Origin: Hormoscilla sp.
GTDB taxonomy: Bacteria > Cyanobacteriota > Cyanobacteriia > Cyanobacteriales > Desertifilaceae
Direction of reading: 5' to 3'
Assembly: GCA_051439505.1 (NCBI GenBank)
Contig: JBFRWI010000158.1
Location: forward strand, 1 to 64,000
Length of the DNA stretch: 64,000 nt
In this document: positions 8,393 to 26,879 of the stretch, one piece after another
How positions within the stretch are numbered: the stretch's first letter is position 1
Layout of the letters: every line of letters begins with the position of its first letter
Program-made: the position numbers and the translations under genes
The notes under the pieces: model-generated
What the model was told of the DNA's origin: nothing
Database searches by the model: none
The model's input: the letters and a program-made list of their open reading frames with translations, nothing else

Positions 8393-8424
8393 CAGCCAAA
8401 AGTTATTAGAGAACAATTATTAGT

Positions 8425-8692: not shown

Positions 8693-8693
8693 T

Positions 8694-9386: not shown

Positions 9387-9469
9387 AGTTGTACTTATCA
9401 CTATAAGTACAGGAGACACTAAAAAATTGCCTACGCTAGTTCTACAGAGTGACAAAAGAGTGCTATAGT

Positions 9470-9592
9470 TAAGCTGTGATGCATTGAAATTGCATAGTCA
9501 AAATTGCCATCATGGCAGAAACGCTTATGGGTCGAGAGTTACCTCGATTCTACCGGAGGCCCCAATATGCAGTTTAGATGCGCGACAGCTTA
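9470..9592. mobile_element. MITE (TAAGCTGT..GCAT / ATGCGCGACAGCTTA ends)
   Basis: Imperfect terminal inverted repeats; a similar right end recurs at ~17093-17112. Confidence 0.65.
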
Positions 9593-9640
9593 TATAGTCT
9601 AAAACTCTCCGCTGTTCGCTGTCCCCTATTCCAAATAGCC

Positions 9641-10600
9641 ATGACCTCATTATCTCCCAATGTCAAAAACTTTGATGCTTCCGAGTATTTAGCTGCTTAT
9701 CAGAATAAACGAGTGCGAAGACCGATTTATCTTAATTTTAATGAAAATACCTGCCCTCTAGAAGCTGATTGCCAGGAGTCGGTACTGTCAAGTGGCTTTA
9801 GAGCGTTTGCCAGACTGGCGTTGCAGATGAAGGTGAAAGACTTTTTAGCCCTTGGCACAGGTAACGGACTAGATGCCTTAGGTGCAATTGAAATATTTGA
9901 CCTAGATTCAGTCACTATTACAGATGTGCTGCCAGAAATTGTTGCTGCTGCACGAGAGAATATAGAGTTGAATCTAGAGCCGGGAACTAAAGTAAAAATC
10001 TACGATTATGTCGGTAGTTTGCTTTCCTGTATTCCAGCGGAACAGAAATTTTCCCTGATATACGAGAACCTTCCTGTACTGCAAAAGCCGCAAGACGTAG
10101 ATTTGAAAGAGGGAATAAATTCAACAATATTCTTCGATAGGGAACAGGAGGAAGTGCCGGAGATTTTAGACAGTTACTTGCTTGGTTCTCACTATCTTTG
10201 CTTACAGCAAGCTTATGAACGATTGTATCCAGGAGGAGGCGTCATAACCGGAATTAGCGGACGGGTGCCACTGGAAATAGTCTTCAATTTACATCAAACT
10301 TGTGGTTATACTCCCGAACTAATAGTATTTGATGTAAAAATTCAGAGTGCGCCGGAAACAATTTTGCCTGGATACTCTCAGGTAGAAGAAGAGAAAAACA
10401 TAGAATTTAAATACTATGCCACTGAGGCGATCGCCATTGTAGAAGCAGCTCGAAGTGAAGGATTAGAAGGACAAGAAATACTTAACGCCGTACAATCTGA
10501 TATCGATCGCTATGCTATGTCAGCAAAGGAAGCTTGGCATCAAGTCGGCAAAGGCAAAAAAATTGCCCAAGGTGAGTGGATGGTTTTTGGCAAGCGTTAA
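9641..10600 (+). CDS. Class I SAM-dependent methyltransferase, resembling methionine S-methyltransferase (MmtN / plant MMT N-terminal domain)
   Basis: Motif I LGTGNG, acidic end of beta2 (ITDV), IYENLP, GGGVITGISGR, C-terminal SAKEAW..GKKI; start set at ATG 9641 because ATG 9578 lies in a MITE end. Confidence 0.75.
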   Translation: MTSLSPNVKNFDASEYLAAYQNKRVRRPIYLNFNENTCPLEADCQESVLSSGFRAFARLALQMKVKDFLALGTGNGLDALGAIEIFDLDSVTITDVLPEIVAAARENIELNLEPGTKVKIYDYVGSLLSCIPAEQKFSLIYENLPVLQKPQDVDLKEGINSTIFFDREQEEVPEILDSYLLGSHYLCLQQAYERLYPGGGVITGISGRVPLEIVFNLHQTCGYTPELIVFDVKIQSAPETILPGYSQVEEEKNIEFKYYATEAIAIVEAARSEGLEGQEILNAVQSDIDRYAMSAKEAWHQVGKGKKIAQGEWMVFGKR

Positions 10601-10692
10601 AAAAAGCGTTTGTACTTCTTCTATTTCTTGCGCCTAAAAGCTGTCGGATGCTCATCAGGAAGTGCGATAATCTACCAACAGGATAAAAGTTA

Positions 10693-11736
10693 ATGGTTCC
10701 AGAGTTTTTTCGCCCTCAAATAAACCATAATCCTCTGTTTCCCAATCCGACCCTTTTGGATGTTACATTACGGGATGGAAGTTATGCCGTTAACTTTCAA
10801 TGGCAGGAGTCTTCAATTAGGTGTATTGTTCGCGCTCTAGTCCAGGCAGGTTTTTCTTTCATAGAACTTGGTTATTATGGAGGAATGTCAGATTTACAAA
10901 AAATCCATGGTATCGATTCACCAGGGATTACAAGTGATTTTCCCTTAAGTCTGGCTCAAGAATTAACCTCGGAATATCCAGATGTCAATTTTGCACTGAT
11001 GATCCATCCCACAGGGCTGAATAAAAAACCTGATTTTGAAAAAATTAAACAAGCAGGAATTTCTTTATTGCGGTTTGTTTATTTACCGAAATGGTGGGAG
11101 CAGTTGGAAAAACACATTCCAGCAGCCAAAGCAGCCGGTCTATCGATTTCAATCAATCTTGTTTGTTCCTCAAGATATAGCCAAGACGAACTTGAGGCCA
11201 ACTGTGACAAACTGGTTAAAAAACTATCTCCAAACCTGATTTACTTAGCCGATACTTGTTCGGCTTTCTATCCCAGCCAACTGAAAGCTATTTATAGTCA
11301 TCTCAGGTCAATCATTGAGGTTACCCTAGGATTTCATGCCCATGATTTTCTTTCACTAGCATTTGCTAACTCCTTAGCAGCAGCTGAGTCAGGAGCAACA
11401 TATATAGACTCTTCCATCTTAGGCATTGGGCGGAGTGCAGGCAATCTCCGTTCAGAATTATGGTGTCTTTCTGCTAGGGCCCAAGGCGATGGAGAATATC
11501 ATTTAGAACCATTACTAACAGCAATTGCAGAGATCGGTAAATACAAGAGCATTCCTCAAGCAGAAGATCTGCTATCTCAAACTGTTGGGGCTTATAATTT
11601 AATTCCCCCTGAAGATGAACTCTTACATAAAATTGCCCAAGAGCGAGGGTTGACAAAGAGTTTAGCTGCTTCGAGGTTTACCCAAAATTGGAGTAAAATT
11701 CAAGAAAACTTTCATTCGCTTCACGAATTACTATAA
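10693..11736 (+). CDS. DRE-TIM metallolyase (4-hydroxy-2-oxovalerate aldolase / HMG-CoA lyase-like)
   Basis: LLDVTLRDG, IELGY, YLADT, GFHAHD metal motif, GIGRSAGN. Confidence 0.85.
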   Translation: MVPEFFRPQINHNPLFPNPTLLDVTLRDGSYAVNFQWQESSIRCIVRALVQAGFSFIELGYYGGMSDLQKIHGIDSPGITSDFPLSLAQELTSEYPDVNFALMIHPTGLNKKPDFEKIKQAGISLLRFVYLPKWWEQLEKHIPAAKAAGLSISINLVCSSRYSQDELEANCDKLVKKLSPNLIYLADTCSAFYPSQLKAIYSHLRSIIEVTLGFHAHDFLSLAFANSLAAAESGATYIDSSILGIGRSAGNLRSELWCLSARAQGDGEYHLEPLLTAIAEIGKYKSIPQAEDLLSQTVGAYNLIPPEDELLHKIAQERGLTKSLAASRFTQNWSKIQENFHSLHELL

Positions 11737-11744
11737 ATTGTCAG

Positions 11745-13232
11745 ATGGAAATTAAACAAGTTGGCATCATTGGTGCAGGAATAAGTGGCTTAGTCACAGC
11801 AAAAACCTTCCTAGAAGAGGGTTACCAAGTTACAGTATTTGAGAAGCAAAAGGGACTTGGTGGGGTTTGGGAAAAGTCACGGACTTACCCAGAACTGGCG
11901 ACCCAAACCCCCGGTAATATCTACTCTTTTTCCGACTATCCCATGCCCCAATCTTACCCGCTGCGACCAACGGCGGAACATATAAGGGATTACTTAAAAT
12001 CCTACGCTCAGCACTTTGGTGTTTTAGATAGAATTAAGTATGGGGCTAATGTAATTAAAGTTGAAAAACGGACTGACAATCAACCAGGATGGGAAGTTAA
12101 CGTCAGGTTTCAGGATGAAAATGAGGGACAAATCAAAGATGTAAAGTACTTCTTTGATTTTATAGTCGTCTGTAACGGTGTATTCAGTACGCCCAAAATG
12201 CCTACTTTACCCGGTGTGGAAGAATTTAAGGCTAATGGTGGAGTAGTGTTGCATTCCACCGAATTCAACGATGCTTCTGTGATTTCGGGTAAGCGCGTCG
12301 CCGTCGTAGGTTTTGGCAATTCCTCTGCTGATATCGCCGCCTATGCTGTGGGTAAAGCGCAAGAATGTACTCTCATTTTCCGTAAAACCACGTGGAAGTT
12401 ACCTGAGTATATTTTAGGTTTGTTCCACGTCCAGTATATTGTATTATCCCGTTTTTCTCAATTTGTTCATGGGGCTGAAAGTCAACTGTATCAGAGAACA
12501 AAGCCTTTATCGCGGGCTTTATCGTGGGCTTTTTGGCGGCTATTAGAAATTTGTCTCCGCCTCCAATTCCGTATTGATAGTTGTGGAATGCGTCCCGAAC
12601 AAGCCATTGATAAATTAGTTAACTGTCGTTTATATATCAGGCTATCTAGTGTAGACTTCTACAAATACATCCGCTCAGGCAAACTCAAAACTCAGAAGAC
12701 GGAAATTGAACGATTCGTTCCGGGTGGTGTAAAACTGGCAAATGGCGAAAGTTTGCAGGCAGATGTGGTGATTTTCGGGACGGGATTTCGTAAAGACATT
12801 CCTTTTCTTTCACCGGAGTACCGCCAAAAGATACTTGATGACCGGGGACTTGTTTTAATGTACCGCAACATGATACATCCTGACATTCCTCGGATGGGTT
12901 TTAATGGCTACAACGGCGGCATATTTGGTTCTTTAATGTCAGAGGTGAGCGCCCGTTGGTTAACGGAGTATCTCAAAGGGAATCTGAAAGTCCCCTCGCG
13001 CGAACAGATGCTAGAGACGATTGAAAGTACCTATGATTCGATAGATCCTAACAAATGTACACCTCAGTCAATGTTTAAACCGATCGATCAACTGATGACT
13101 GACTTGGGGGCTAATCCTCATAGATATGGCTGGAATCTAATTGCCGAATATCTATTACCGATTAACCCTTCTGGTTACCATAATCTCCAACAGGAATTGT
13201 TAACTAAAAATTTGCAAATGGAACACAAATAA
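11745..13232 (+). CDS. Class B flavin-containing monooxygenase (FMO-like)
   Basis: FAD motif GAGISG, GGVW, FMO fingerprint F...GG..LHSTEF, NADPH motif VGFGNS, FGTGF. Confidence 0.9.
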   Translation: MEIKQVGIIGAGISGLVTAKTFLEEGYQVTVFEKQKGLGGVWEKSRTYPELATQTPGNIYSFSDYPMPQSYPLRPTAEHIRDYLKSYAQHFGVLDRIKYGANVIKVEKRTDNQPGWEVNVRFQDENEGQIKDVKYFFDFIVVCNGVFSTPKMPTLPGVEEFKANGGVVLHSTEFNDASVISGKRVAVVGFGNSSADIAAYAVGKAQECTLIFRKTTWKLPEYILGLFHVQYIVLSRFSQFVHGAESQLYQRTKPLSRALSWAFWRLLEICLRLQFRIDSCGMRPEQAIDKLVNCRLYIRLSSVDFYKYIRSGKLKTQKTEIERFVPGGVKLANGESLQADVVIFGTGFRKDIPFLSPEYRQKILDDRGLVLMYRNMIHPDIPRMGFNGYNGGIFGSLMSEVSARWLTEYLKGNLKVPSREQMLETIESTYDSIDPNKCTPQSMFKPIDQLMTDLGANPHRYGWNLIAEYLLPINPSGYHNLQQELLTKNLQMEHK

Positions 13233-14095
13233 TGACTCAGCATTTGTTAGATATCGAGAAGAATATACGCTATCTTGAAGCCCACCAACAAGCGTTTAAA
13301 ATCCCAGATATTTATCCTCTGGAACTCTTCAAGCATTTGGTGGAGAAAGCAGGGGGTTACACAATTGAGTGTTCTTGCAAAATTGCCGGAGATCTGCTTT
13401 ATCCTGCTCGCTTTAACCTCTGGTTTCGAGATCTGCAATATTTTCCTAAGGAAATCAACGGGGTTTTGGAGTTCTTCCGAGCAGTGGAAGCAATGGATAG
13501 GGCGAAGTTAGATTATAGTCTCTTCCAGAAATTTTATAGCGATCGCTTTGACTGGAGGAAAGTCAAAAAGATTGCTGCTGGAGTCGATTTGCGCCCAGAA
13601 AAAGCCAATTCTCGGTTAAAAATCTGGTTTATTATTGAGGATTATCCAGAAAAGCTGGAAGCAGCAATATCTCTGCATGGAGAAAGGGAAGATGTGCGCA
13701 CATTGATTGTAAATAACAAGCTGCTCATCGGTTTTGATTTTTTCTTAGATGGTCATAGCACCATCAAACTTTATCCTGAAATTGACTCTCAAGAATGGCA
13801 GCAGGTAGATGTGCAACAGAGGCTGAGGAAAGTTTTGTCACCCCAGGCTCTGCAACTATTAAATGCTTGTGATGAACTGACAGTTGCTTTTAGTAAAGGC
13901 GATCGAGATAAAACATTGCATTTAGATTTACTTGATGCTAATAGCTTTATCAATAAGTTAGGGCATGAAATGGCAAGTAAAGTCCATGCTCATTATCAGG
14001 ATAAACACGTGGAACGTATTCATGTATCGTTGAGCGAACAGGAATTACTCGCGGGGTCAATTGAGAACCTGAATATGTATTACCTGATGCCATAG
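13232..14095 (+). CDS. LynF/TruF/PatF-family (ABBA-fold) prenyltransferase
   Basis: IECSCKI, PARFNL, GVDLR, SRLKIW, IGFDF, KLYP, terminal NMYY and ~290 aa length are hallmarks of cyanobactin F-family prenyltransferases; overlaps the FMO stop (TAATG). Confidence 0.85.
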   Translation: MTQHLLDIEKNIRYLEAHQQAFKIPDIYPLELFKHLVEKAGGYTIECSCKIAGDLLYPARFNLWFRDLQYFPKEINGVLEFFRAVEAMDRAKLDYSLFQKFYSDRFDWRKVKKIAAGVDLRPEKANSRLKIWFIIEDYPEKLEAAISLHGEREDVRTLIVNNKLLIGFDFFLDGHSTIKLYPEIDSQEWQQVDVQQRLRKVLSPQALQLLNACDELTVAFSKGDRDKTLHLDLLDANSFINKLGHEMASKVHAHYQDKHVERIHVSLSEQELLAGSIENLNMYYLMP

Positions 14096-14138
14096 TACCG
14101 ATAGTTTATATTACCCGTGTAGCGATCGCCCTTTTGTT

Positions 14139-15266
14139 ATGAATCAATATATCGATAGCATTCTCACCAGTTTTCAAACCAATTTCAAGGGTTATCCCAC
14201 ATCTGTGGCAACAGACCTTTCTAGAACAGACCTCGTAGATTTGTCTATTGGGGAGATTCAGCTTGACCAGCCTAACTGGATTAAAGAGCTAATTTTCATT
14301 AGTATGAAAGAAGCACCGTTAGGTTATGTTGATTCCCAAGGGATGAAAAGCTTACGCTCTGCATACGCCAGTTACCTCTTCAAAGCAGGTCATAGTATTA
14401 ATGAAGAGCAAATAATGATTACATCTGGAGCTAAAGAAGCTTTGTGGATGGCTTTTTTGATTAGCTTGCAGCCAAAGGATACAATCCTTTTACCAAAACC
14501 TGGCTGGTCTCCTTATTATATGTGGGCGCAAGCTTTAGGAGCAGTAATTCGCACCTACGATCCCAGAGATAAAAACGTCGCCGATGTGATTATTAATGAA
14601 ATTTCAAGTTACCAACCTTCTGTTTTAGTTGTGAATTTTCCTAACAATCCCACGGGTGCAGAACTATCTCAGATAGAACTTAATCGAATAGTAGACAGCG
14701 CTCAAGACTCTCAGGTTAAAGTGATATCGGATGAGGTATATCGGGTTTTTGCTAGCACAAAGGAATCAGCAGCTACTATTTTAGGAAGAATCAATTCATC
14801 TCAAAGCCAAAACTTGATCCATGTTGATTCCATGACCAAAATGTTAGGTTTGGGAGGTCTGAGAATTGGTTTTTTTGTTTCTGATGAAAGCACTATAGAG
14901 AAAATACGAAATTTTCGCGCCAGTTATGCTTCTTGCGTTAGTTCAATTGCCCAGTGCGCTTCAGCTTCAATTCTTGAGGATGAGCGTTTAATTAATCATA
15001 TCCAATCTTTAGTTAGGGTGACGAAACAAAATCTTAAATCTACAGTTGACCAACTATTGAAGCATCAGTATCCTGTTGAAAGTTCTGGCGCTGTTTATGT
15101 TTGGGCTAAGTATCAAGACTCAGAAGCTAAAGCGGCTCCTAGCAAAGACATTATTATAAATGGCCGCCATGTAAAAGCCGCCCTTGGTAGTATATTTGGA
15201 GCGCCAGAATATTTCCGTTTGTGTCCTGTAAGACCGCAATATCTACTCAATTCTATTTTCAATTAA
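14139..15266 (+). CDS. PLP-dependent aminotransferase class I/II
   Basis: DLSIGE, GY..SQG...LR, ITSGAKEA, NFPNNPTG, SDEVY, S.TK..GL.GLRIG. Confidence 0.88.
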   Translation: MNQYIDSILTSFQTNFKGYPTSVATDLSRTDLVDLSIGEIQLDQPNWIKELIFISMKEAPLGYVDSQGMKSLRSAYASYLFKAGHSINEEQIMITSGAKEALWMAFLISLQPKDTILLPKPGWSPYYMWAQALGAVIRTYDPRDKNVADVIINEISSYQPSVLVVNFPNNPTGAELSQIELNRIVDSAQDSQVKVISDEVYRVFASTKESAATILGRINSSQSQNLIHVDSMTKMLGLGGLRIGFFVSDESTIEKIRNFRASYASCVSSIAQCASASILEDERLINHIQSLVRVTKQNLKSTVDQLLKHQYPVESSGAVYVWAKYQDSEAKAAPSKDIIINGRHVKAALGSIFGAPEYFRLCPVRPQYLLNSIFN

Positions 15267-15442
15267 CCCATTCAATTAAGCCTGGAATTAGTTAATTTTC
15301 AATAAAAATACTACCACAAGCCTCACAAGCCTAAAAGTCCTGGCGATTTGTCTGGAGGATTAAATGGGGCAAGCAAATTAGCAATTAGCCATAATTTTTG
15401 GTTAATTGCATTGCATAATTGAGATAATTGAGATGCCCTCAA

Positions 15443-16300
15443 CTAACATTCACTTATAGACTTTAAGGCTTTTTCAGTGGCATCAGGCATTAATCTTATA
15501 GCAACTTCCTTGAAAATATTTGAATATAATGTTATTGATTGATAGCAATGAAGAAGTTTAATATCCCTCAATTGAGGAAGGTTTGGTTTTAATTTATTGA
15601 GCTGCTCGATCTTTTCTATCTGACTGATATTTAAGATATTGAAAATAAAAGGGATCGGATAATTATAAGCAGATGGTATATGTGCAATTTTAGTTTTAGT
15701 TTCCTGAATTGCTCGGCTTAAAGCTAATTGATCTTGCTGCTTAAATCTGCTCCATTCTTTATGCCAAGTTTCAAATAAAGTATTGCAATCAGAAGTATTT
15801 CTCCAAAGTATTAATCCACCGTTAAACTGAACAGAATCAGCAGCACAAATTTTTGAGGTATAAGTTCTTTCTACTTGAGCGATATGGCTGGACTGAGAAA
15901 TTGACTGAGAAATTGTAGGATATGGATCGATTGTCATAGCAGTATTGGCAAATTGTAAAAAACTCCAAATTTCATCAATTGGTTTTACAGGTAGAATATC
16001 AGCATCTAAATATAGAGTTTCATCAAACTCTGTGAACGTATTCAAGCGGGTTTTGATCCACCTTGATATCATTACATTACTCTGCCTCTCTTTTTCAGGG
16101 ATAAGAATTGATTGGATGACAATATTAAATTCATACAATTGCTTTTGAAGTTCTGTATTTTTTAGATTTGACAGGATGACGATCGGTAGCTTAGGCGATA
16201 CCTGACGAAGAGCAAAAGCACTGATTACAGCAGATTCTAAATATGACCATGAGTCAACAGCACAATATATTACGCCTTGAGTTAGTGGTTGGGTTTTCAT
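15443..16300 (-). CDS. GT-A nucleotide-diphospho-sugar transferase (GT8-like)
   Basis: GVIYCA, K..L, TLYLDAD DxD, FNGG, DQ.AL, YN, H motifs. Confidence 0.8.
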   Translation of the reverse strand: MKTQPLTQGVIYCAVDSWSYLESAVISAFALRQVSPKLPIVILSNLKNTELQKQLYEFNIVIQSILIPEKERQSNVMISRWIKTRLNTFTEFDETLYLDADILPVKPIDEIWSFLQFANTAMTIDPYPTISQSISQSSHIAQVERTYTSKICAADSVQFNGGLILWRNTSDCNTLFETWHKEWSRFKQQDQLALSRAIQETKTKIAHIPSAYNYPIPFIFNILNISQIEKIEQLNKLKPNLPQLRDIKLLHCYQSITLYSNIFKEVAIRLMPDATEKALKSISEC

Positions 16301-16427
16301 GAGACGTCAGGTTTGACTATAAACAACAGCCGAAAATAGGTAAAATTGATATTACATTGATTAAAATTATAGGGTTATATTCCGGAGATGACAAATGTTA
16401 ATTCAACCAGTTTCCTAAACTCTGTTA

Positions 16428-17036
16428 TTAATTTGCGTTTCTACTTTGACTCATCACATCTAACTGCGATTCATTGGCTAGATTTTTATGGGGAAATGGT
16501 TGGTCAGGGATAGAACATTTTAGAAAAGAACATAAATGTTCCCATCCATCCCCACCAGTAATATTCATAATTAGTAAATCTTCAGGTCTATGGGCAAAGT
16601 AATTTTGTACGTGCTGCACATGTCTGTGATATGCTTCTTGAAAAAAAACCGCGTCATAAACTAACGTGCCAAAGATTTTTAGCCTATGATTATGAATAAT
16701 TTCTCTGAATTTTGGTGAAAATTCGTCTAGATTGATTCTCTGCTCAAAGTGGTACTTACAGGACTGTAACCACTGGTTTAACTCTCTCACCGTTAAGATG
16801 AACTTAGAGCCAGGATAGAACCGATCTAATTCTTCAAAACAACAGGCAACGGAGATATCCATAGCTGCATCATAACGATCGATTTCTTCCCATGTTACAG
16901 GGTAATGCACGCTAGCGTATCCCAGAATATCCAGGGCAGCGTGTAAGCTAGTTGTTCCAGTCCTAGATAACCCAATACCAAAAATCTTTGTAGTCATAGA
17001 GTCTTTGATAAAATTACTCAATAATAATTGTATCAT
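16428..17036 (-). CDS. Sulfotransferase family protein (Sulfotransfer_4 type)
   Basis: KIFGIGLSRTGTTSL PAPS loop, SKFILTVR..W.QS, GDGWE.LC.FL, PFP..N; probable start MTTKIF at 16997. Confidence 0.85.
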   Translation of the reverse strand: MIQLLLSNFIKDSMTTKIFGIGLSRTGTTSLHAALDILGYASVHYPVTWEEIDRYDAAMDISVACCFEELDRFYPGSKFILTVRELNQWLQSCKYHFEQRINLDEFSPKFREIIHNHRLKIFGTLVYDAVFFQEAYHRHVQHVQNYFAHRPEDLLIMNITGGDGWEHLCSFLKCSIPDQPFPHKNLANESQLDVMSQSRNAN

Positions 17037-17318: not shown

Positions 17319-18158
17319 TTGGCAAGAATTAATCAAAAGGTTGGTTTTATCTGTGGCGCTGGTCATTCGGGATCGACGCTTTTGGGGCTGATTTTGGGAA
17401 GTCATCGGGATTGTTTTTATTGTGGAGAGGCTAATAAAACCAGATATTTCCAAGATTTGGATAAACCAAAGAGAAAAAGAACTTGCAAAATTTGCGGTAT
17501 AAACTGTCCGGTTTGGGGGAATTTTGTGGTTAGCGATCGCCTCGATCTCTACGAACAATTATCCCGCAAAACCGGAAAAGCGATCGTTATCGATTCGACC
17601 AAAGAAATCAAGTGGATAACAGAACAGATAACCGCGATAGAAAATACAAATTCTCATATTTTTTTGCTTTTTATGCAAAGAGATGGTCGAGCAGTTATCA
17701 ATTCTTACCTGAGAAAATATCCAGAAAACAATGTAGAGCAAAGAATTAATAGCTGGGTTGAAAAAATCAAGAATACCCAAAAATTCTACGAGCAATTTAG
17801 GGGTAAAAAAAGCAAAGTTAAATATGAAGAATTAGCTAGTAATCCCGCAGAAGTAACCAAAAGGTTGTGCGATTTTTTCGAGATCGAATATCAACCGGAT
17901 ATGCTCGATTATTACCTGCACGAACATCATCCCATTGGCGGTAACAGCGGGACTCAGTTTTTAGTAGCCAAAGCACAAAATAAAAACTTAGATGCCTCTT
18001 TTGTTAAAGTTTCCGAAAATCGCCGGGATTATTACCAGAATCACGGCTTAGAAATTAGCTTAGATTTGCGTTGGCGAGAAGAACTAGACCCTGGAGTAGA
18101 GCGTTTATTTGTGAAAATTGCTGGTAAAATTAATGAAGAATTTAAGTGGGAAGTGTAG
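17319..18158 (+). CDS. Sulfotransferase
   Basis: GAGHSGSTLL 5'-PSB loop, IDSTK, RDGRAV..S 3'-PB, VKYEEL. Confidence 0.85.
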   Translation: MARINQKVGFICGAGHSGSTLLGLILGSHRDCFYCGEANKTRYFQDLDKPKRKRTCKICGINCPVWGNFVVSDRLDLYEQLSRKTGKAIVIDSTKEIKWITEQITAIENTNSHIFLLFMQRDGRAVINSYLRKYPENNVEQRINSWVEKIKNTQKFYEQFRGKKSKVKYEELASNPAEVTKRLCDFFEIEYQPDMLDYYLHEHHPIGGNSGTQFLVAKAQNKNLDASFVKVSENRRDYYQNHGLEISLDLRWREELDPGVERLFVKIAGKINEEFKWEV

Positions 18159-18160
18159 AG

Positions 18161-19534
18161 ATGAAAAAAATAGACTTAGTATTTAGAACTGTCGGAGAAC
18201 GAACCTCGGATGCGGCGCTAGAATTGGCGGTGAAAAATATTCAGCCCCAACAGGTGCATATTATCGAAAATGTTAAACCATTTTCTAAAGCTGTGCAGCA
18301 AATGTTGGCAATAAATTACGATTGTGATTTTGTTGTATTTGCGGATGCTGATTGTTTGATTTTTGAGGATATGGTACCATTTCTCCAGGACAATAACCTT
18401 CCTTATGTAGACTGTTACGTTCTCGATCAATTCCGAGGTCACATCCATTGTGGGGTTCATATTACCAGAATTGATGTAGTGCGAACGATGCAAAAAATAA
18501 AAACTCCCGAAGGCGATCGCCAATACGTGCTGCGACCAGAGTCTAGCACTCGGAATTTAGCCCTACGTCAGCTAAACCAAGGCAAGGCTTTTAAGCATTT
18601 TCAAATCTTTCACGACTTTTTTCAGTATTACCGAGATATTTTTGTGAAATATGTTATCAGGGAACTAAGAGATCGTAAAGGTTATTTGGAAGCTAAATTA
18701 AAAGTTAATCAAGCTGATTGGAAAAAGCAAAGCGAGGATAGGGAGGAACGAGATTTTATTGTGGCTAACTATGCTGTCAACTACAGTCTAAAATTCCTTA
18801 AAGGAAACCCAAAAGAAATTGATAAATTAATTGCCGATTTACCGCAGATTGCGATTCGCGAGTTAGAAAAGTTAAATATTGCCGAAAAAGAAGCATTGAC
18901 TTTACAACAAGTCTTGGAATTATCCGCTAAGATTAATCCGAAAAAATGGCAGCGAAGTAAGCGGATGAAAGTATTTGGGATTGGCTTAAGTCGCACGGGG
19001 ACAAAAAGCTTAACGGTGGCATTAAATATGCTGGGTATCAATGTCGTTCATTATCCAAATGATGAAACAACTATGCAAGAATTGATATCAGGAAATTATG
19101 AGTTTTCCTTATTGAATAGTTGGGATGGCATTACTGATATTACTGTTGCTCCTTATTATGCTCAGTTAGATAAAATTTATCCTGATAGTAAGTTCATTCT
19201 GACGGTGCGGGAAAAAGAATCTTGGCTCAAATCAATGGAAGCACATTGGAGCAAAAAACCTATCTTTGACGATGCACCGGAAGAAAAAAGTAAAATGCAG
19301 TTGAGGAGATTACTACGGAGTGCTGTGTACGGAACTTATCAGTTTAATGCTGACAGATTATCTTATGTTTACGACCTCCACTATAAAAATGTGCTGGAAT
19401 ATTTCCGCGATCGCCCAGACTCTTTATTAGTTATTAATATTTGCCAAGGCGAAGGATGGGAAAAGTTATTTCCCTTCTTTGATTTTCCAGTAGGGTGCAA
19501 CGAACCATTCCCCTACAATAAAAGAAAGATATGA
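18161..19534 (+). CDS. Fusion of a glycosyltransferase-like N-terminal domain and a C-terminal sulfotransferase domain
   Basis: N-terminal VFADAD DxD motif; C-terminal KVFGIGLSRTGTKSL, SKFILTVR, GEGWE, PFP; ATG 3 nt after the upstream stop. Confidence 0.75.
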   Translation: MKKIDLVFRTVGERTSDAALELAVKNIQPQQVHIIENVKPFSKAVQQMLAINYDCDFVVFADADCLIFEDMVPFLQDNNLPYVDCYVLDQFRGHIHCGVHITRIDVVRTMQKIKTPEGDRQYVLRPESSTRNLALRQLNQGKAFKHFQIFHDFFQYYRDIFVKYVIRELRDRKGYLEAKLKVNQADWKKQSEDREERDFIVANYAVNYSLKFLKGNPKEIDKLIADLPQIAIRELEKLNIAEKEALTLQQVLELSAKINPKKWQRSKRMKVFGIGLSRTGTKSLTVALNMLGINVVHYPNDETTMQELISGNYEFSLLNSWDGITDITVAPYYAQLDKIYPDSKFILTVREKESWLKSMEAHWSKKPIFDDAPEEKSKMQLRRLLRSAVYGTYQFNADRLSYVYDLHYKNVLEYFRDRPDSLLVINICQGEGWEKLFPFFDFPVGCNEPFPYNKRKI

Positions 19535-19833: not shown

Positions 19834-21684
19834 GTGACAACAAGCAACATAGTTCTAAAAATTGCCCTAAGTGATGCTGGTAAATTAGATACAAACAGAG
19901 CAGTAAAAAAGCTGTTCCAGCGAATATTTAAATATGTTTGGCAAAACAAGTTACCCTTCTTTGTCGCCTTAGTGGTAATTATTTGTCTGTCAATTATGCA
20001 GGCTCTCATTCCCCAGGTTACTCGCTACACGATTGACGTTGTTATCCCCACCAAACAATTGAATTTATTACCTTGGATAGCAGCCGCAATTTTTTTGATT
20101 TCCATCCTTACGGGGGTGCTTAATTACGCTCGCACCTATCTGATGTCTTTGTTTGGTGAAAGAATAATTGACAGCATCCGCAACGATATGTACAAACATA
20201 TTCAGGGACTATCAATTAGCTTTTTTGAAAATCAGCGGACGGGGGATTTAATGTCACGGCTGGCGAAAGATGTCAATGCAATTGGTACTTTAGTTACTAC
20301 TGACATTGCGGAAATTTTAGTAGATGCTTTCACCGTGATTGTCATTATTGTTTATCTGTTGACTGCTGATTGGCAATTGAGTCTACTGCTGTTTTTTACC
20401 TGGCCCCTGACGATTTATATGACGCAAGTTTTTGGCAAATTAATGCGGGGTGCTTACCGAAAGGTGGAACAGCAAGCCGCAGCGGTTAACAATCATCTCC
20501 AAGATACAATTTCCAATATTCAGGTCATCAAATCTTTTGGTAACGAACGGTACGAAATTGACCGTTTTTTTGAACAAAGCCGTAGCTATATGGAGGCAAA
20601 TATTCGCGCTACTCGTCTTTGGTCAATTTTCTTTCCGGTTATTGATGTCCTCAACAACATTGGGAGTGCGATAGTTTTGGTTTTCGGTTCCTGGGAAGTA
20701 ATAGTTGGTCGTCTGACTATTGGTGAACTAGCTGCTTTTTTAGCCTATATCAATCAAGTTAATAGACCAATCCGACGTTTTAGCAAAATGATTCAGCTCG
20801 TGCAAAGAGCGCTTGTTGGTTCGGAGCGAGTCTTTGAAATTTTGGAAATGGAACCAGAAGTAAAAGAAAAGGAAGATGCAGTTGTATTAACTTCCGTAGA
20901 AGGTAACCTGAAATTTGAAAATGTCGAGTTTGGTTATAAGGAAGGGGAGACAGTTTTGCATGACTTTACTCTGGAGATCAAACCGGGAATGACTGTGGCA
21001 TTAGTGGGTTCTTCTGGTGCGGGAAAAAGCACCGTGGCGAAACTAGCTGCTCGTTTTTACGACCCTCAAAAAGGGGAAATTTTAATTGCCGAACGCAATT
21101 TGCGGGATATCAGTTTGGAGTCTCTGCGATCGCACCTCGGAATTGTTTCCCAAGAAACTTTACTCCTTTACGGCACGGTACGAGATAATATTGCTTATGG
21201 CAAGATTGATGCTACGGATGCGGAAATTGAAGCCGCCGCTAAAGCAGCTAATGCCCATGATTTTATTATCAACTTTCCGGAGGGTTACAACTCAATAATT
21301 GGCGAACGCGGTGTGAAACTTTCGGGAGGACAAAGACAGCGTTTAGCTATTGCTCGCATTCTCCTTAAAAATCCCCAATTTGTCATCCTTGACGAAGCAA
21401 CTTCTGCTCTGGATACCGAGTCCGAACAACTCATCCAAGAGTCTTTGCAGCAACTATTAAAAGACCGCACAAGCTTAGTTATTGCTCACCGACTTTCCAC
21501 GATTGAAAAGGCAGATAAAATTGTTGTTTTAGAGTCCGGATGCATTTTGGAAACAGGAACGCACCCAGAATTAATTGCTAAAGGGGGAAGGTATGCTTCT
21601 CTGCACTCCCGGCAATTTCCGCAAAAATCCAGTCAGTTAGAACCACTAGACATTCAGGACAAAAAACTAGAATATGTTTCATAA
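19834..21684 (+). CDS. ABC exporter, fused permease/ATPase (MsbA/Sav1866-like)
   Basis: N-terminal TM domain, GSSGAGKST, LSGGQRQR, ILDEATSALD, IAHRLST. Confidence 0.93.
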   Translation: MTTSNIVLKIALSDAGKLDTNRAVKKLFQRIFKYVWQNKLPFFVALVVIICLSIMQALIPQVTRYTIDVVIPTKQLNLLPWIAAAIFLISILTGVLNYARTYLMSLFGERIIDSIRNDMYKHIQGLSISFFENQRTGDLMSRLAKDVNAIGTLVTTDIAEILVDAFTVIVIIVYLLTADWQLSLLLFFTWPLTIYMTQVFGKLMRGAYRKVEQQAAAVNNHLQDTISNIQVIKSFGNERYEIDRFFEQSRSYMEANIRATRLWSIFFPVIDVLNNIGSAIVLVFGSWEVIVGRLTIGELAAFLAYINQVNRPIRRFSKMIQLVQRALVGSERVFEILEMEPEVKEKEDAVVLTSVEGNLKFENVEFGYKEGETVLHDFTLEIKPGMTVALVGSSGAGKSTVAKLAARFYDPQKGEILIAERNLRDISLESLRSHLGIVSQETLLLYGTVRDNIAYGKIDATDAEIEAAAKAANAHDFIINFPEGYNSIIGERGVKLSGGQRQRLAIARILLKNPQFVILDEATSALDTESEQLIQESLQQLLKDRTSLVIAHRLSTIEKADKIVVLESGCILETGTHPELIAKGGRYASLHSRQFPQKSSQLEPLDIQDKKLEYVS

Positions 21685-22529
21685 CCATAACGGTTGAGGT
21701 AATCGCTAGTTATTGTTTCAATTGTTTCTAATTCTTGGTCGGTAAAACATCCTTGTTTCTGCCACTGTTGAATTAATTCCGGGTTAAAGGGGGTTTGGGT
21801 GTGGGGATGAATGTCTTTAGTCACCCCCAGCAAGCGGGAACCCCCTTTGTTTAGTTCGTAAAAATTCAACATCTGCTTGTCGAAGGAAATATCCAAAAAG
21901 GCGCATATTTGGCTGCAAACTTTTTCTGGTGCTAAAATCAGGTTTTCATAACGGACTACGAATACAGCTTCGGGAAAGTTTTCCTTCATTTCCCAGATCC
22001 CCTGACCGCGACTTTGGCAAATTGTTGCTGCTTCTCCTAGAGATTTTACAAAATATATATTATCGAGCATTGAGCGAACTATATCTCTGGGGTCTCTGAC
22101 AATATAGATAAATCGAGCATCGGGGAAGACTTTTTGGGTATAATCTGTATAAGGTTTCTTAGCGTAACAGCCTTTTTTGTTGCCTAGATAGTCTGTACCG
22201 CTATTGTTTTGGCAAGCAAAAAAATTAAAGAGAGAGTCAAGAAGCTGACTGATGGTTAAGTCGGTTTCCCAGGAAACGGTGGCGATAAATTGGTCGAGGT
22301 TAAAATTTGGCCAACTGTTTAGTTTTTTGTCCGATCGCATTAAGGCGATCGCCACCTCTTTCTGTTCTCGATTTAACTGTTTGGTAGTAAAATTTTTGGC
22401 AAATAATTGCTCAATAAAAAGCGTTTCGGGCGTTACGGTAATCTGGGGATGTGCAGACAAAACTAGCTGTAGCAAGGTTGTTCCCGAGCGCGGCGCACCG
22501 GAGACAAACAAATGATTACTTTCTTTCAT
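21654..22529 (-). CDS. Sulfotransferase
   Basis: SGAPRSGTTLL, PET, IVRDPRD..S, VRYENL. Confidence 0.88.
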   Translation of the reverse strand: MKESNHLFVSGAPRSGTTLLQLVLSAHPQITVTPETLFIEQLFAKNFTTKQLNREQKEVAIALMRSDKKLNSWPNFNLDQFIATVSWETDLTISQLLDSLFNFFACQNNSGTDYLGNKKGCYAKKPYTDYTQKVFPDARFIYIVRDPRDIVRSMLDNIYFVKSLGEAATICQSRGQGIWEMKENFPEAVFVVRYENLILAPEKVCSQICAFLDISFDKQMLNFYELNKGGSRLLGVTKDIHPHTQTPFNPELIQQWQKQGCFTDQELETIETITSDYLNRYGYETYSSFLS

Positions 22530-23311
22530 ACCTCATAACCATAAAAAACTGACAGACTTTCTTTCATTATACAATTGAGATAATCAATATCGGCTGTACT
22601 CAAGTTGTCTTTAAATCCACCTACTTTACCTCTGCGAGTTTTGTAAGAGTTGATATCTCCAGGATCTACCGCACTGATGCGCGGCGAATTAAATTTATTT
22701 TCAACTTCCATTTTGCGCATATTCTCAAAACTAGCATATTCTCCTGCTTCTGCAATCAAATCGTCGGCAATTTCTGGTAAACCTAAGAAATGTAACATCC
22801 GACGCAATTCTTTTTGGCGATCGCGATGGATATCTTCATAGCGAACCAGTAAAAAATCTTGGGGTACCTCTCGATTTTCTGCCCAGATATTATAAAAAAC
22901 GATAAGTGTGGCGAAACTACCATTCTCTTCGCGAATAAATTCCGATAAACTACCGTCATAAGCTTGGCGACGTTTGGTTTTCTGGTAATAGTTAGAGACG
23001 ATCGCATCTCTGGGATCTCGGACTAAAAAAATTACCCGTTTGTCTTGATATTCAGCTTTTGAGGTTACCAACTCATCCGGTTTTTTCCATTGCGGTTTGT
23101 CGTCGTGGGATACACAAATGTTGGGAATATCGGGATGTAATTCTCTAAAATTGTCTAGTTAGAAAATATTAGCATCCTTTAACTTAAAGTGCATTTGTAA
23201 AACTCTTCCTAACATCAATCGCAGCCAAGTTCGACCGCATTTAGGAAATGAAATAAGGAAAAAATCAGACTCTTTTTTCGCTTTCAATCGTTTTTCTTTC
23301 TCTGGTGTCAT
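22526..23311 (-). pseudogene. Sulfotransferase domain protein interrupted by one in-frame stop
   Basis: ATG 23311 gives MTPEK...ISFPKCGRTWLRLM...DANIF, TAA at 23161-23159, then continues in frame LDNFRELHP...ELVTSKAEY into the tracked 181-aa ORF (RDPRD, RRGKVG). Confidence 0.85.
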
Positions 23312-23555: not shown

Positions 23556-24815
23556 CTAATAATTTGGTAAATGGCGATGGAAAATTTCTACTGCCCTGGC
23601 GACGCCATCTTCTGAACGAATCTTTTCCCCTAAAACACGAGCGCGATCCTTCATATCTTCATCACCGGTGGCAGTGCGAATTGCAGCAACTAATTTCTCT
23701 GCTGTTAAGTCTTTGCGTGGGATCTGCGACGTACCAACACCCAAGGAAGCCACCCTTCGCCCCCAAAAAGGTTGATCTACAGCAAAAGGAACAATTATTG
23801 ATGGTACGCCAGCCCGCAAAACCGCTGCCGTTGTACCAACACCACCATGATGAACTACTGCCGCCATTTGGGGAAACAGCCAATCATGGGGAACTGAATC
23901 AATCTTGAAGACATTATCCGGTAAATCGATATTACTCAAACCTCCCCATCCTGTTAACAGAATACCTCGCTGTCCAGTCTGAGTCAAAGCATTCAACACC
24001 AATTGAGTTAGTGCTTTTGCTTCCAGATCGCTCATACTGCCGAAGCCAATAGATATTGGGGGCGAACCAGCGGCTATGAAATCTACCAGTTCTTTTGGGG
24101 GTTGCCAGTCTGAAGGCCGATCTAAAAACCAGTATCCCGTGACATATGCCCGAGAGAGCCAATCATCAGGCTTTGGAATCACGCTAGGACTGAAGCAATG
24201 GAGGAGGGGAAGTTGTTGCTTTTGCTGCTGAGAATATAGACCTGTAATGGGAACTGCAGGTAATTTGAGAATTTCCTCTCGGCAGCGATTAATTATTTTT
24301 CGAGTCAATTGCCAACGGAATTGTTCTTCAAAAACATAAGTCAGCCTGTTGTTGAGTCCTCCCAAATTGAAAGTTGATGTATGCAGTGGGTGAGGAAAAG
24401 CACGAGTAGGAGTAATTGGATTTTTATAAGCTGCGTAGCAAGGAACGCCTAATTTTTCAGCAATATGATATCCAGGCAGTGCTAGGGTAGAATAAATGAT
24501 TGCTTGTGTATCCTGAGAGCAATGGAAAGCATCAGTCATCATCTGTTCAACAGTGGAGCCAACAATACGCCAAAGAATGGCTTTTTTCGCCAAAGCTGAC
24601 TTCTTCCTACTGGTTTGTTCGTTAAACTGTTTTACCCATTCTTGAGGGTTGTCTCCCACTGGCGCAAAGTCTAAACCTCGGGTCTTAACAAAGTCCTTGA
24701 ATATAGGATTGCTAGCTAGTTGCACTTTGTGACCAGCTGATTGTAAACCCAGCCCTAGAGCAATGAAAGGTTGTACGTCACCTCGCGTTCCAACTGCTAA
24801 AATCGTAATTCGCAT
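23556..24815 (-). CDS. Family 1 (GT-B) glycosyltransferase, sterol/aglycone glucosyltransferase-like
   Basis: GTRGDVQP, GFGSM, VPHDWLFP, HHGG.GT, DQPFWG. Confidence 0.9.
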   Translation of the reverse strand: MRITILAVGTRGDVQPFIALGLGLQSAGHKVQLASNPIFKDFVKTRGLDFAPVGDNPQEWVKQFNEQTSRKKSALAKKAILWRIVGSTVEQMMTDAFHCSQDTQAIIYSTLALPGYHIAEKLGVPCYAAYKNPITPTRAFPHPLHTSTFNLGGLNNRLTYVFEEQFRWQLTRKIINRCREEILKLPAVPITGLYSQQQKQQLPLLHCFSPSVIPKPDDWLSRAYVTGYWFLDRPSDWQPPKELVDFIAAGSPPISIGFGSMSDLEAKALTQLVLNALTQTGQRGILLTGWGGLSNIDLPDNVFKIDSVPHDWLFPQMAAVVHHGGVGTTAAVLRAGVPSIIVPFAVDQPFWGRRVASLGVGTSQIPRKDLTAEKLVAAIRTATGDEDMKDRARVLGEKIRSEDGVARAVEIFHRHLPNY

Positions 24816-24961: not shown

Positions 24962-26254
24962 CTAACTACTCTCTAAAATTTTCTGATTTGACTTTTTAAC
25001 TTTAGAAAGCCAAGCTTTAGCAGAATAAAAAATTTCTGAATAAGGAACTGTCGTTTCTGCTATTAAATCTAAAAAAAATGGTGCGAAAAACTGGGGGAAA
25101 AGCTTGTTCATTGTTCTAGCGAACTTACGCCTTAAAATCAATTGCACGAATAATGTCTTAGATATAGGAAAACTGTTCTCCGCCAGGTTCTTCAAGGCAT
25201 TGCCATCTCGTCCCCTGCGATCTGTAAACTGTGGTATCGCCTTAGTATAGTCATCATCATACTCATCCAAAATGCGATCGAACACAATTGCATCTTCTAA
25301 GGCTGAATTGCAACCTTGAGCTATAGTTGGGGGTACGGCATGGGCAGCATCTCCAACTATCAATACACTATCACCGTGATGATAACGATTGCAGCGAATT
25401 GTCACGAAGCTCCATACTGGCCTTTGTACAAAAGCTTCCGCTTCTGATTCGGAGAGTAGCTTGGCAACTTCTGGAAAATTTTGTTCAAAAAATTTCCTTA
25501 CCTCTGACTTACTAGAAAGACCGATTACTTGATTGTTTTTGTGGTTAAAAACCAGACCGCAACTTAGGGTATTGTCGCGCTGAGGCACTGCCAATAATCG
25601 CGTTCCATCGTCTAATTTCCATGAATGTAGCTTGTTTGGTTCTAAGTTAATTCCTAACTTCTCATTAACTCGCGATAAGTATACTGTTTTGTAGACATCA
25701 TGAATATAACTTTGTTCAAACTCGAACCTTGCTGTATTTAAAAAGTGAGATCTTACTACCGATCGCACCCCATCAGCACCGATCAAGACATCATAGTCAA
25801 CAGTAATTTGCTCTTCTGTTTCTTTGATAAATTTTACTTTTTTCTGTTTAAGATCTACCCCGGTACATTGGTAATTAAAGTAAATGTTGACTTGGCTGTT
25901 TTTATCTTTTTCTTTCAGCGTCTCTAAAAGAGTAGTTACCAGTTGGTTACGGTCAACAGTAAGTATTGATTTTCTTCTTTGTAATTCCTGCGGCTTGCTG
26001 TTTTTTGAATAATTAATCATTCCCATGTTTTCGAGTCCATGAGATTTTACCGCATCCTCTAATTCGATATTCCTTAAAGCGTTCAATCCTCTTTCAGAAA
26101 GGAGAAGGGGGAAAGTTCTGTATTTAGAGAAAGATATTTTTCGGGGATCTGGGCGGCTATCATAGATGTCGATTTGGTATTGACCGCGACGTAACAAATA
26201 ATGAGCAAGTAAGGAACCGGCTGGCCCAGCACCAACGATTGTAACTTTTATCAT
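24962..26254 (-). CDS. FAD-dependent monooxygenase (kynurenine 3-monooxygenase-like aromatic hydroxylase)
   Basis: IVGAGPAG, IGADG.RS.VR, VGDAAH...P..AQGCN.ALED; start at ATG 26254 preceded by AAGGGAG. Confidence 0.85.
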   Translation of the reverse strand: MIKVTIVGAGPAGSLLAHYLLRRGQYQIDIYDSRPDPRKISFSKYRTFPLLLSERGLNALRNIELEDAVKSHGLENMGMINYSKNSKPQELQRRKSILTVDRNQLVTTLLETLKEKDKNSQVNIYFNYQCTGVDLKQKKVKFIKETEEQITVDYDVLIGADGVRSVVRSHFLNTARFEFEQSYIHDVYKTVYLSRVNEKLGINLEPNKLHSWKLDDGTRLLAVPQRDNTLSCGLVFNHKNNQVIGLSSKSEVRKFFEQNFPEVAKLLSESEAEAFVQRPVWSFVTIRCNRYHHGDSVLIVGDAAHAVPPTIAQGCNSALEDAIVFDRILDEYDDDYTKAIPQFTDRRGRDGNALKNLAENSFPISKTLFVQLILRRKFARTMNKLFPQFFAPFFLDLIAETTVPYSEIFYSAKAWLSKVKKSNQKILESS

Positions 26255-26879
26255 AAAAACTCCCTTGACATTCCAATCATGTAATAGTTTCCTGACAAGA
26301 TTACTGCGCAAGGACTTGCTACTGGTCTTTGTAGCAGAGTTCGAGCGCCTATCTCTATAGGTGTGGCCCGAGCAGTAACATTTTTTATGATTCTGCTTTG
26401 ATCTCAACCTCGTCAAATAGCACTTTAACATAAATAAAGAACAGAAACAAAAAAATTTACTTACTTTAACAATTTTTTGCTCTTCGCGAAATGGTATGCT
26501 AAATCCCTCTTCATAGCTTCAAACCCATGATACCCATGATATACCTAGATTTGATGTTTTTATCAAACAGGATCTGCGGCAAAAGCAAAGCGCAGGTGTT
26601 GAAACCCCCATGGCTAAAGGGTTTCAGGTATATTAGCTATAAGGGGGATGTCCAAGTAAATAATCATCCTCCAAGATTATCCAGTAGTTACGCAAGCTTC
26701 TGTACAGCGCGAGGGGCGTGAGCCATTAATCTGGTACCGGCTAGAATGACAACCGATATCGCTAACCGAGAAGTGTTGCCACAGGGCCAGAGCATGAAAG
26801 CGGGAAATGAGTAGAAGAACGATTTTCCGTAAAAACACAGATTGCCAAATTTGTCAAGCATAATGGACCGACGTTACCG

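Follow-up and report, generated by a model that had tools for sequence, protein, structure and literature searches.

A low-GC genomic island of Hormoscilla sp. with a cyanobactin-type prenyltransferase in a candidate assembly-line-free pathway

Gene content and extent of the locus

A stretch of 64,000 nucleotides of Hormoscilla sp. DNA (contig JBFRWI010000158.1, positions 1 to 64,000; hereafter the window) carries, between positions 9641 and 15266, five open reading frames (ORFs), g1 to g5, that encode predicted enzymes of small-molecule metabolism. The extent of this gene set and the pathway that it may encode were analysed by comparison of the genome from which the window was taken (G000) with other genomes, metagenomes and protein structures. 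The five genes and the left edge of the genomic unit to which they belong are listed below.

9641..10600, + strand: g1, S-adenosylmethionine (SAM)-dependent methyltransferase fold of the HemK/MmtN type, assigned from the predicted structure; family without a Pfam model
10693..11736, + strand: g2, DRE-TIM (HMGL-like) enzyme of the class II pyruvate-aldolase type, rare subfamily (PF00682, 104.5 bits, cutoff 29)
11745..13232, + strand: g3, class B flavin-containing monooxygenase (FMO; PF00743, 181 bits, cutoff 22)
13232..14095, + strand: g4, LynF/TruF/PatF prenyltransferase (cyanobactin F-family, ABBA; TIGR04445, 261.1 bits, cutoff 140)
14139..15266, + strand: g5, fold-type I pyridoxal-phosphate enzyme, class I/II aminotransferase (PF00155, 169.1 bits, cutoff 19.7)
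9430..9640, no strand: left island edge; 42 nt (9430-9471) identical to DNA just 5' of g1 in a second Hormoscilla genome (G401), with continuous homology from 9590

A sequence-only reading of this DNA had described five co-oriented genes with gaps of 92, 8, -1 and 43 nt, with which both the ORF list and the DNA agreed. The spacer of 8 nt between g2 and g3 was confirmed from the DNA. One base is common to the stop of g3 and the start of g4 (TAATG), an overlap that points to translational coupling of g4 with the FMO. The longest ORF for g1 opens at 9578; the start at 9641 was backed by the G401 orthologue (MTSLSPNV) and by the family alignment. The five enzyme classes named in the same reading also held, based on Pfam and NCBIfam scores for g2 to g5 and on a fold match of the predicted g1 structure.

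Alignment of the window with G401 by blastn showed homology over approximately 17 kb (about 9430-26643), which ended on the right at 26643, while the flanking DNA on either side was unrelated between the two genomes. The GC content of this region was 0.397, as compared to 0.482 for the genome. Since homology with G401 reaches 26643, both flanks differ and GC content is low, the unit is a low-GC accessory island of about 17 kb that is larger than five genes and of which g1 to g5 form the left arm. The proposal that the five genes form a unit was thus borne out for their tight, operon-like spacing, but the true unit is an island that additionally carries glycosyltransferases, sulfotransferases, an exporter and an aromatic-type hydroxylase. 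The prenyltransferase of the window organism was 93-94% identical to those of two Hormoscilla metagenome-assembled genomes (MAGs). Neither promoter-like sites (30, versus 24.9 in shuffled controls) nor terminator-like sites (5 versus 7.6) were in excess, and no riboswitches or other RNA families were detected within 8000-27500 at E<=1.

Domains of assembly lines were searched for with Pfam in 39 window ORFs, namely g1 in its form from 9578 and 38 of the 45 ORFs that encode 150 aa or more; among the seven others, several overlap scanned ORFs. None of the 39 contained nonribosomal peptide synthetase (NRPS), polyketide synthase (PKS) or cyanobactin domains, including Peptidase_S8, PatG_C and PatG_D, and all nine condensation-domain matches in the genome were located on other contigs. 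The absence of an NRPS, PKS or ribosomally synthesised and post-translationally modified peptide (RiPP) core, as initially proposed, therefore holds within the window. A locus of this kind could be overlooked by tools that are based on assembly lines.

A recurrent aldolase-aminotransferase pair

The translation of g2 contained the metal- and enolate-binding motifs DVTLRDG and HAHD. DRE-TIM enzymes are defined by an N-terminal DxxxRDG motif and an HxH metal motif. The closest solved relative was DmpG (1nvm, 78 bits), and pyruvate aldolases of the DmpG/BphI type were nearer than Claisen-type synthases. However, g2 scored below the NCBIfam cutoffs for 4-hydroxy-2-oxovalerate aldolases (119.8 versus 229 and 103.6 versus 286 bits), showed no Pfam match to the DmpG_comm domain and was not accompanied by a DmpF-type acylating dehydrogenase among the scanned ORFs of the island. 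Its subfamily comprised 70 representatives at E<=1e-30, of which the best was 48% identical to g2.

The usual motifs for the PLP lysine and the cofactor were present in g5 (SMTK, NPTG and SDEVY), with SMTK aligning to the 'SKS' lysine region of Thermotoga aspartate aminotransferase 1o4s. Aspartate and aromatic aminotransferases from thermophiles were its nearest solved relatives (97-98 bits; 1o4s 97.7), while the guanitoxin cyclodehydratase GntC (8fft) scored 61.1 bits. GntC shares the fold of g5 and GntC_guanitoxin was the best NCBIfam model, but its score of 191.2 bits was far under the cutoff of 415. A role of g5 as a GntC-like gamma-hydroxy-arginine cyclodehydratase was unsupported, in view of this value and the lower score of the solved GntC relative to ordinary aminotransferases.

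Outside the Hormoscilla lineage, natural fusions of HMGL-like and Aminotran_1_2 domains occurred in two of the seven g2 relatives scanned (P0149 and P0159; 36-38% identity to g2). The protein collection yielded 15 g5 homologues, 13 with 30-44% identity and two with 96 and 70% identity. Six of the 13 (38-44%) were on contigs that matched those of g2 homologues (45-50%), with lengths of 150988, 29812, 14275, 14229, 11159 and 4976 bp; these pairs were taken as apparent contig-mates from equal length and source of the contigs, not from sequence. Six further homologues on contigs of at most 3.5 kb, and one with 30% identity on a contig of 25,715 bp, had no g2-homologue counterpart. A plasmid collection held no g5 relative and a single g2 relative (35% identity), in an unrelated context on a Legionella adelaidensis plasmid. 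Because fusions and apparent contig-mates recur outside the lineage, the combined data provide indirect evidence that aldolase and aminotransferase may form a recurring two-enzyme module. Such a module, fused or paired in uncultured bacteria, may represent a general and so far unnamed route to gamma-hydroxy amino acids.

A cyanobactin-type prenyltransferase in a non-cyanobactin setting

Membership of g4 in the F-family was supported by a match to DUF5838 (PF19156; 258.8 bits, cutoff 28.8) that covered the full profile. Its closest solved relatives were SmiF (274 bits), 8ye0 (253 bits) and DciF (230 bits). According to the part of a review that deals with DciF, the guanidine group is contacted by E49, H167 and T134, of which E49 is the active-site glutamate. 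In an HMMER alignment, the glutamate in the g4 sequence 'TIECSCKI' aligned with DciF E49, while g4 had leucine and isoleucine at the positions of H167 and the nearby threonine (cited as T134, counted as T135) and asparagine at that of G65. Arginine specificity of g4 by analogy with DciF was therefore unsupported: since only E49 of the three contact residues is kept, no substrate of g4 can be read from its sequence.

Two of the three non-Hormoscilla g4 relatives whose loci were examined, both from Nostoc (L005 and L006; 40-42% identity), came from loci with PatA, YcaO, ThcOx and PatG, the canonical make-up of a cyanobactin cluster. In contrast, the surroundings of g4, a full-length family member, contain no gene for a PatA/PatG protease, YcaO, an oxidase or a precursor; g4 instead overlaps the FMO gene within an operon that also encodes aldolase and aminotransferase. 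G401 (94% completeness) showed no PatG_C match despite the presence of a g4 orthologue, and none was found in the fragmented genome G403 either. Because G401 has a g4 orthologue without PatG_C, whereas the Nostoc relatives sit in cyanobactin clusters, g4 is an enzyme of the cyanobactin type that is encoded outside a cyanobactin setting. A function of g4 inside a small-molecule operon would, if true, broaden the substrate range of the F-family, and its action on a small-molecule substrate would offer access to non-canonical amino acids with prenyl groups.

The third locus (L004, a Leptospirales MAG contig, 107-8946) encoded an F-family prenyltransferase outside the cyanobacteria, with 38% identity to g4. 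Adjacent genes encoded a radical SAM protein and an SpvB/RHS/FG-GAP repeat protein of 2136 aa; no cyanobactin genes were nearby.

It was considered whether g4 might prenylate ribosomal peptides in trans like any other RiPP peptide prenyltransferase, for example those of a cyanobactin-like locus on contig C192, with an accidental place in the operon and with g2 and g5 serving amino-acid metabolism. All PatG_C matches in G000 were on C192, which encodes a PatA-type protease and a PatG-DUF (domain of unknown function) protein but has no adjacent prenyltransferase, and g4 is the sole F-family member of this genome. Together with the high family score of g4, the peptide enzyme DciF among its nearest solved relatives and the canonical clusters around L005 and L006, this distribution would fit a peptide substrate. 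However, G401 and G403 retain the g4 orthologue without any PatG_C match, g3 and g4 overlap, and E49 is the only guanidine contact of DciF that g4 retains. Moreover, no cyanobactin-type precursor ORF was listed 5' of g1, as judged by eye, and the DNA upstream of g1 is not common to G401 apart from the 42 nt at the island edge. Action in trans on a RiPP was consequently regarded as improbable.

On C192 itself, PatG_D and PatG_C domains occurred twice within region 8410-12062, once as parts of a PatA-type S8 protease and once as the only domains of a 293-aa protein. Each PatG-domain gene was followed by a small ORF with the common stretch 'LL.IRM.LLHGAN.NDPPQF'; these ORFs may encode unusual precursor peptides.

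Methyltransferase and monooxygenase

No Pfam match above threshold was obtained for g1, and matches to HemK-type NCBIfam models were weak. An AlphaFold model built with 32 homologues (pLDDT, predicted local distance difference test, 92.3) had the class I SAM-methyltransferase fold. The top and longest fold match was the methionine S-methyltransferase MmtN (Z 21.8 over 241 residues; Foldseek E 7.7e-12), closely followed by HemK2/N6AMT1 (Z 20.6-21.4; 188-201 residues) and PrmC (Z 20.1-20.3). The model superposed on these enzymes and g1 shares with them the GxGxG motif and an acidic residue closing strand 2, but sequence identity was just 15-18% and g1 has YENLP at the position of motif IV, which is NPPY in HemK. 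This motif and GTGNGLD were invariant in the alignment of the g1 family, which comprised 147 homologues (39-56% identity for the best 120 of 147). A profile of this family reached solved methyltransferases at a best E of 0.0073 and MmtN at an E of 0.1, neither of which is convincing. Among the language-model neighbours of g1, a plant 'methionine S-methyltransferase-like' cluster was found with a score of 0.96.

These likenesses to methionine S-methyltransferases bear on a different function of the left arm, namely formation of a sulfonium or other onium compound of the osmolyte type by a route like those to dimethylsulfoniopropionate (DMSP) or gonyol, with the aldolase extending the chain. Such a route, which was considered very unlikely, would have g1, like MmtN, methylate methionine or an amino acid resembling it, g5 transaminate the product and the FMO oxidatively decarboxylate the 2-oxo acid. 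The best and longest g1 fold match and the plant neighbour cluster are consistent with it. FMO chemistry in such a route would have to be assumed by analogy with plant YUCCA enzymes, and prenyltransferase, glycosyltransferases and sulfotransferases would be left without a role. Furthermore, HemK2/N6AMT1 and PrmC are tied with MmtN within about one to two Z units, and the g1 profile reaches MmtN at E 0.1 only. In the passages on MmtN of a published study, E127, R132 and E250 are given as its methionine-binding residues, and plant methionine S-methyltransferase is described as combining an MmtN-like domain with an aminotransferase-like domain (PMC9135737); the latter combination would favour the sulfonium route.

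For g3, the closest solved relatives were ancestral animal FMO2/5/1 (about 126-130 bits). Two dinucleotide-binding motifs, GAGISG and GFGNSS, were identified. The FMO signature motif, FxGxxxHxxxY/F, was partly kept (NGGVVLHSTEF).

Right arm of the island

Beyond g5, the island encodes two glycosyltransferases, two to five sulfotransferases, an ATP-binding cassette (ABC) exporter and a VioC-like hydroxylase:

15443..16300, - strand: glycosyltransferase family 8 (GT8)-like glycosyltransferase, convergent with g5; weak Mannosyl_trans3 and Glyco_transf_8 matches, 87% identity in G401
16428..17036, - strand: sulfotransferase (Sulfotransfer_4; PF17784, 132.6 bits), present in G401
17319..18158, + strand: sulfotransferase (Sulfotransfer_3; PF13469, 49.8 bits), no G401 counterpart
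18146..19534, + strand: ORF with a 270-residue N-terminal part and Sulfotransfer_4 (PF17784, 117.8 bits, residues 275-458), 93% identity in G401
19834..21684, + strand: ABC exporter with fused permease and ATPase, MsbA/HepA-like (ABC_membrane 196 bits, ABC_tran 112 bits)
21654..22529, - strand: sulfotransferase (Sulfotransfer_3/1; PF13469, 110.2 bits), no G401 counterpart
22526..23071, - strand: short sulfotransferase ORF that may be truncated (PF00685, 80.7 bits, model 89-251 of 255, the C-terminal two thirds)
23556..24815, - strand: family 1 (GT1) glycosyltransferase of natural-product type, with macrolide and rifamycin relatives (EryCIII-like_C, Glyco_transf_28), 88% identity in G401
24962..26431, - strand: group A flavin adenine dinucleotide (FAD) monooxygenase (FAD_binding_3, 94.7 bits), best match violacein VioC, then aromatic hydroxylases

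The N-terminal 270 residues of the protein encoded by 18146..19534 had no Pfam match. The best NCBIfam models for the GT1 gene, Rgt (143 bits) and MGT (88 bits), were both under their cutoffs, and the VioC model matched 24962..26431 with 198.3 bits against a cutoff of 760. In G401, three of the window's sulfotransferase ORFs and its exporter arrangement were missing or had another form, the exporter being represented by a 61% identical paralogue in reverse orientation. With its GT1 glycosyltransferase, VioC-like hydroxylase and efflux genes, the right arm carries gene types predicted to act in small-molecule tailoring.

Proposed pathway

The island, with g1 to g5 as its left arm, was tentatively interpreted as encoding an assembly-line-free pathway to a small, decorated metabolite derived from an amino acid, an interpretation that falls somewhat short of being probable. 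It starts from direct observations, namely gene order, gene families, island boundaries, distribution and the recurring aldolase-aminotransferase pairing. In the proposed pathway, the DmpG-like aldolase g2 would condense pyruvate and an aldehyde to a 4-hydroxy-2-oxo acid, from which the g2/g5 aldolase-transaminase pair would yield a free gamma-hydroxy amino acid. An aromatic aldehyde is our guess for the partner of pyruvate, because of the VioC-like hydroxylase and the preference of the F-family for aromatic and guanidine nucleophiles. The MmtN/HemK-like g1 would methylate a heteroatom, the FMO would oxygenate a heteroatom (N or S), and g4 would transfer a prenyl group onto a free, non-peptide intermediate. 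Afterwards, the VioC-like hydroxylase, the two glycosyltransferases and several PAPS (3'-phosphoadenosine 5'-phosphosulfate)-type sulfotransferases of the right arm would hydroxylate, glycosylate and sulfate the intermediate, and the ABC transporter would export the product.

The most likely product, as predicted along with substrates and order of steps from the gene families, is an oxygenated derivative of a gamma-hydroxy amino acid that bears prenyl, methyl, glycosyl and sulfate groups. A prenylated, methylated and oxidised amino-acid derivative, as suggested in the sequence-only reading, is retained as a candidate in this prediction; what changed is the degree of decoration, since the right arm adds glycosyltransferases, sulfotransferases and a hydroxylase. 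A bolder and rather doubtful proposition is that a cyanobactin-type prenyltransferase was recruited from RiPP biosynthesis onto the free gamma-hydroxy amino acid of the aldolase-transaminase pair, and that this yields a new class of assembly-line-free, prenylated, N- or S-oxygenated, glycosylated and polysulfated metabolites in cyanobacteria of the sponge-associated type.

Distribution and integrity of the island

The occurrence of g1, g2 and g5 was counted in genome samples, which are not censuses. Three of five Hormoscilla genomes (G000, G401 and G403) contained g5 orthologues and the island, while G402 and G404 were without. At order level, 3 of 401 sampled genomes contained g5, each of them Hormoscilla, and a family-level search around a Nostoc genome found it in 1 of 389, the Scytonema-like G548. 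Among 401 phylum-sampled genomes, g2 occurred in G000 only and g1 in two, of which the second match was marginal. Because copies of g1 and g2 with 80-85% identity were present in the protein collection on one 8997-bp NCBI contig, a somewhat more divergent version of the island appears to exist.

In G548, a remnant of the island (C1, about 6848700-6852700) retained an intact GT8-like gene (76% identity), again convergent with g5. A TnpB/OrfB-type element that carries a frameshift of its own divides this g5, and of the prenyltransferase only the final 52 codons are left. The remnant adjoins an SBP_bac_5 gene with 60% identity to window 28735-30504.

Several observations weigh against the proposed pathway. 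The full five-gene set is limited to close relatives (93-98% protein identity), beyond which a decayed remnant was found; because the carriers are so closely related, conservation of the five genes says little on function. A metagenome scan confirmed 163 relatives of g1, and none of the loci of the best 80 of 163 contained relatives of g2, g3 or g4. Four of these 80 loci had aminotransferase matches, at only 22-23% identity, and neighbour genes in seven g1 metagenome loci showed no kinship to one another. Support from beyond the lineage was obtained for the aldolase-aminotransferase pair alone. Within the pair, the aminotransferase domains of the fusion proteins were only 23-29% identical to g5, and recognition of the contig-mates was independent of their sequence. 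All characterised or solved F-family relatives encountered (e.g., DciF, SmiF, LimF, PirF and PagF) are described as peptide enzymes. At its stop codon, g1 overlaps a weak hairpin of the terminator type, so that it may be a separate unit. Among the 14 sequencing runs with DNA nearly identical to 9500-15400, none was RNA. Finally, the island copy in G403 was fragmented by frameshifts and in-frame stops, and the ratio of nonsynonymous to synonymous substitution rates (dN/dS) between window and G401 was approximately 1.09 for the sulfotransferase at 16428..17036.

The sequencing runs mentioned above were labelled marine sediment metagenome where shares of the near-identical DNA were large (0.70-0.96), and sponge, plant, microbial mat and marine metagenome where they were smaller; no habitat is claimed from these labels.

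The broken G403 copy, the Scytonema-like copy that is reduced to GT8, split g5 and prenyltransferase tail, the dN/dS of one sulfotransferase and the apparent truncation of another sulfotransferase ORF would all be consistent with a remnant of horizontally acquired genes in decay, which no longer functions and yields no product. In the window, however, the ORFs of g1 to g5 and the majority of those in the right arm are intact and encode catalytic motifs. Moreover, dN/dS of g1 to g5 was 0.20-0.48, which indicates purifying selection, with values that are noisy due to low divergence. A remnant without a product was accordingly judged highly improbable.

Production of dysinosin, an aeruginosin-type peptide, offers another context in which the island might function, either by supplying an unusual building block to the dysinosin NRPS in trans or by late tailoring of dysinosin-like peptides through hydroxylation, glycosylation, sulfation and prenylation. 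The gene types of the right arm (glycosyltransferase, sulfotransferases, hydroxylase and ABC exporter) would be in keeping with tailoring sets of aeruginosins. Moreover, an FkbH-containing NRPS, a marker of the dys cluster in the passages of a comparative-genomics paper that describe it (PMC6520454), was present in G000 and G401, which both have an intact island, and was not found in the island-free G402 and G404. However, no FkbH match was obtained in G403, where the island is broken, and co-occurrence over five related genomes is weak evidence. The two loci are on separate contigs in G000 (C58 and C158) and also in the 6-contig genome G401 (C2 and C5). The known dysinosin structures, furthermore, present no obvious role for an aldolase-transaminase module. 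In the relevant passages of the literature, the dysinosin sulfate is ascribed to a domain within DysB (PMC6520454) and the pyrroline unit to Aer3 and AerC, the prenyltransferase being of a different type (PMC12371840). A role of the island in dysinosin formation was therefore considered unlikely. Synthesis of the dysinosin pyrroline (Aeap) unit by the operon was rejected on the basis of the same ascription to Aer3 and AerC in the part of PMC12371840 that covers this unit.

Other genes in the window

The acetolactate-synthase-like and aldehyde dehydrogenase genes upstream of the island (5180-8392) were considered as members of the proposed pathway and rejected, as they are absent near the G401 island and have a genome-like GC content of 0.497. 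The aldehyde dehydrogenase (694 bits to an NADP succinate-semialdehyde dehydrogenase (SSADH) model) stands beside a thiamine-diphosphate-dependent enzyme (870 bits, PRK08322), a pair that we take to be the 2-oxoglutarate decarboxylase/SSADH bypass of the cyanobacterial tricarboxylic acid cycle. Further upstream, on the minus strand (465-4983), two Wzt-type ABC ATPases, an ABC-2 permease and a 293-aa ORF form a set of the polysaccharide-export type that is not common to the G401 copy.

Downstream of the island, a 1091-aa TPR-CHAT protein was followed by a matrixin-like metalloprotease ORF (32489-36447). An IS605-family OrfB/TnpB gene (OrfB_IS605 and Cas12f1-like TNB; 39486-40688) ran on the strand opposite to a trypsin-like protease ORF, whose end it overlapped. 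Region 46835-52231 encoded a 1798-aa protein with Ser/Thr kinase, AAA_16, GAF, HisKA and HATPase domains. At 54171-61296, a defence island of the prokaryotic Argonaute-like type was formed by a pPIWI-RE module complete with its three genes, which encode a protein with Y-domain and restriction endonuclease (REase), a 1104-aa Z-domain protein and a 904-aa pPIWI_RE protein with X, MID and RNaseH domains.

Comparison with known systems

The literature searched contained no description of the island or of its combination of enzymes, and no paper on the SmiF prenyltransferase or on PDB entries 8Z12, 8Z13 and 8Z17. The sequence-only reading had not recognised any characterised cluster in this combination, and no matching described cluster was found in these literature searches and in the genome samples.

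The proposed g2/g5 reactions resemble the hydroxypyridylhomothreonine branch of nikkomycin biosynthesis (NikA/NikB), in which a DmpG-type aldolase is followed by transamination. A difference is that neither a NikA/DmpF-type acylating dehydrogenase nor the DmpG communication domain was found with g2.

Hormoscilla symbionts have been proposed, in the main-text passages of a comparative-genomics paper, as makers of several sponge metabolites (PMC6520454). The word prenyltransferase is absent from that text, and these passages do not describe the locus (PMC6520454). Because of this proposed role of the symbionts, an island that differs between their lineages is a concrete candidate for the origin of an unassigned sulfated or prenylated compound.

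The nearest described parallel, likened by description only, is the aeruginoguanidine/microguanidine (agd) cluster of Microcystis. In the passages that describe it, this cyanobacterial cluster joins a prenyltransferase, AgdJ, whose role is untested, to several sulfotransferases and a sulfatase, and leads to prenylated and sulfated small molecules (PMC12371840). However, agd is described there as centring on an arginine-activating NRPS (PMC12371840), which has no counterpart in the island. By comparison with these systems, the enzyme families of the Hormoscilla island are familiar but their combination is undescribed, and its F-family prenyltransferase is encoded outside a RiPP setting.

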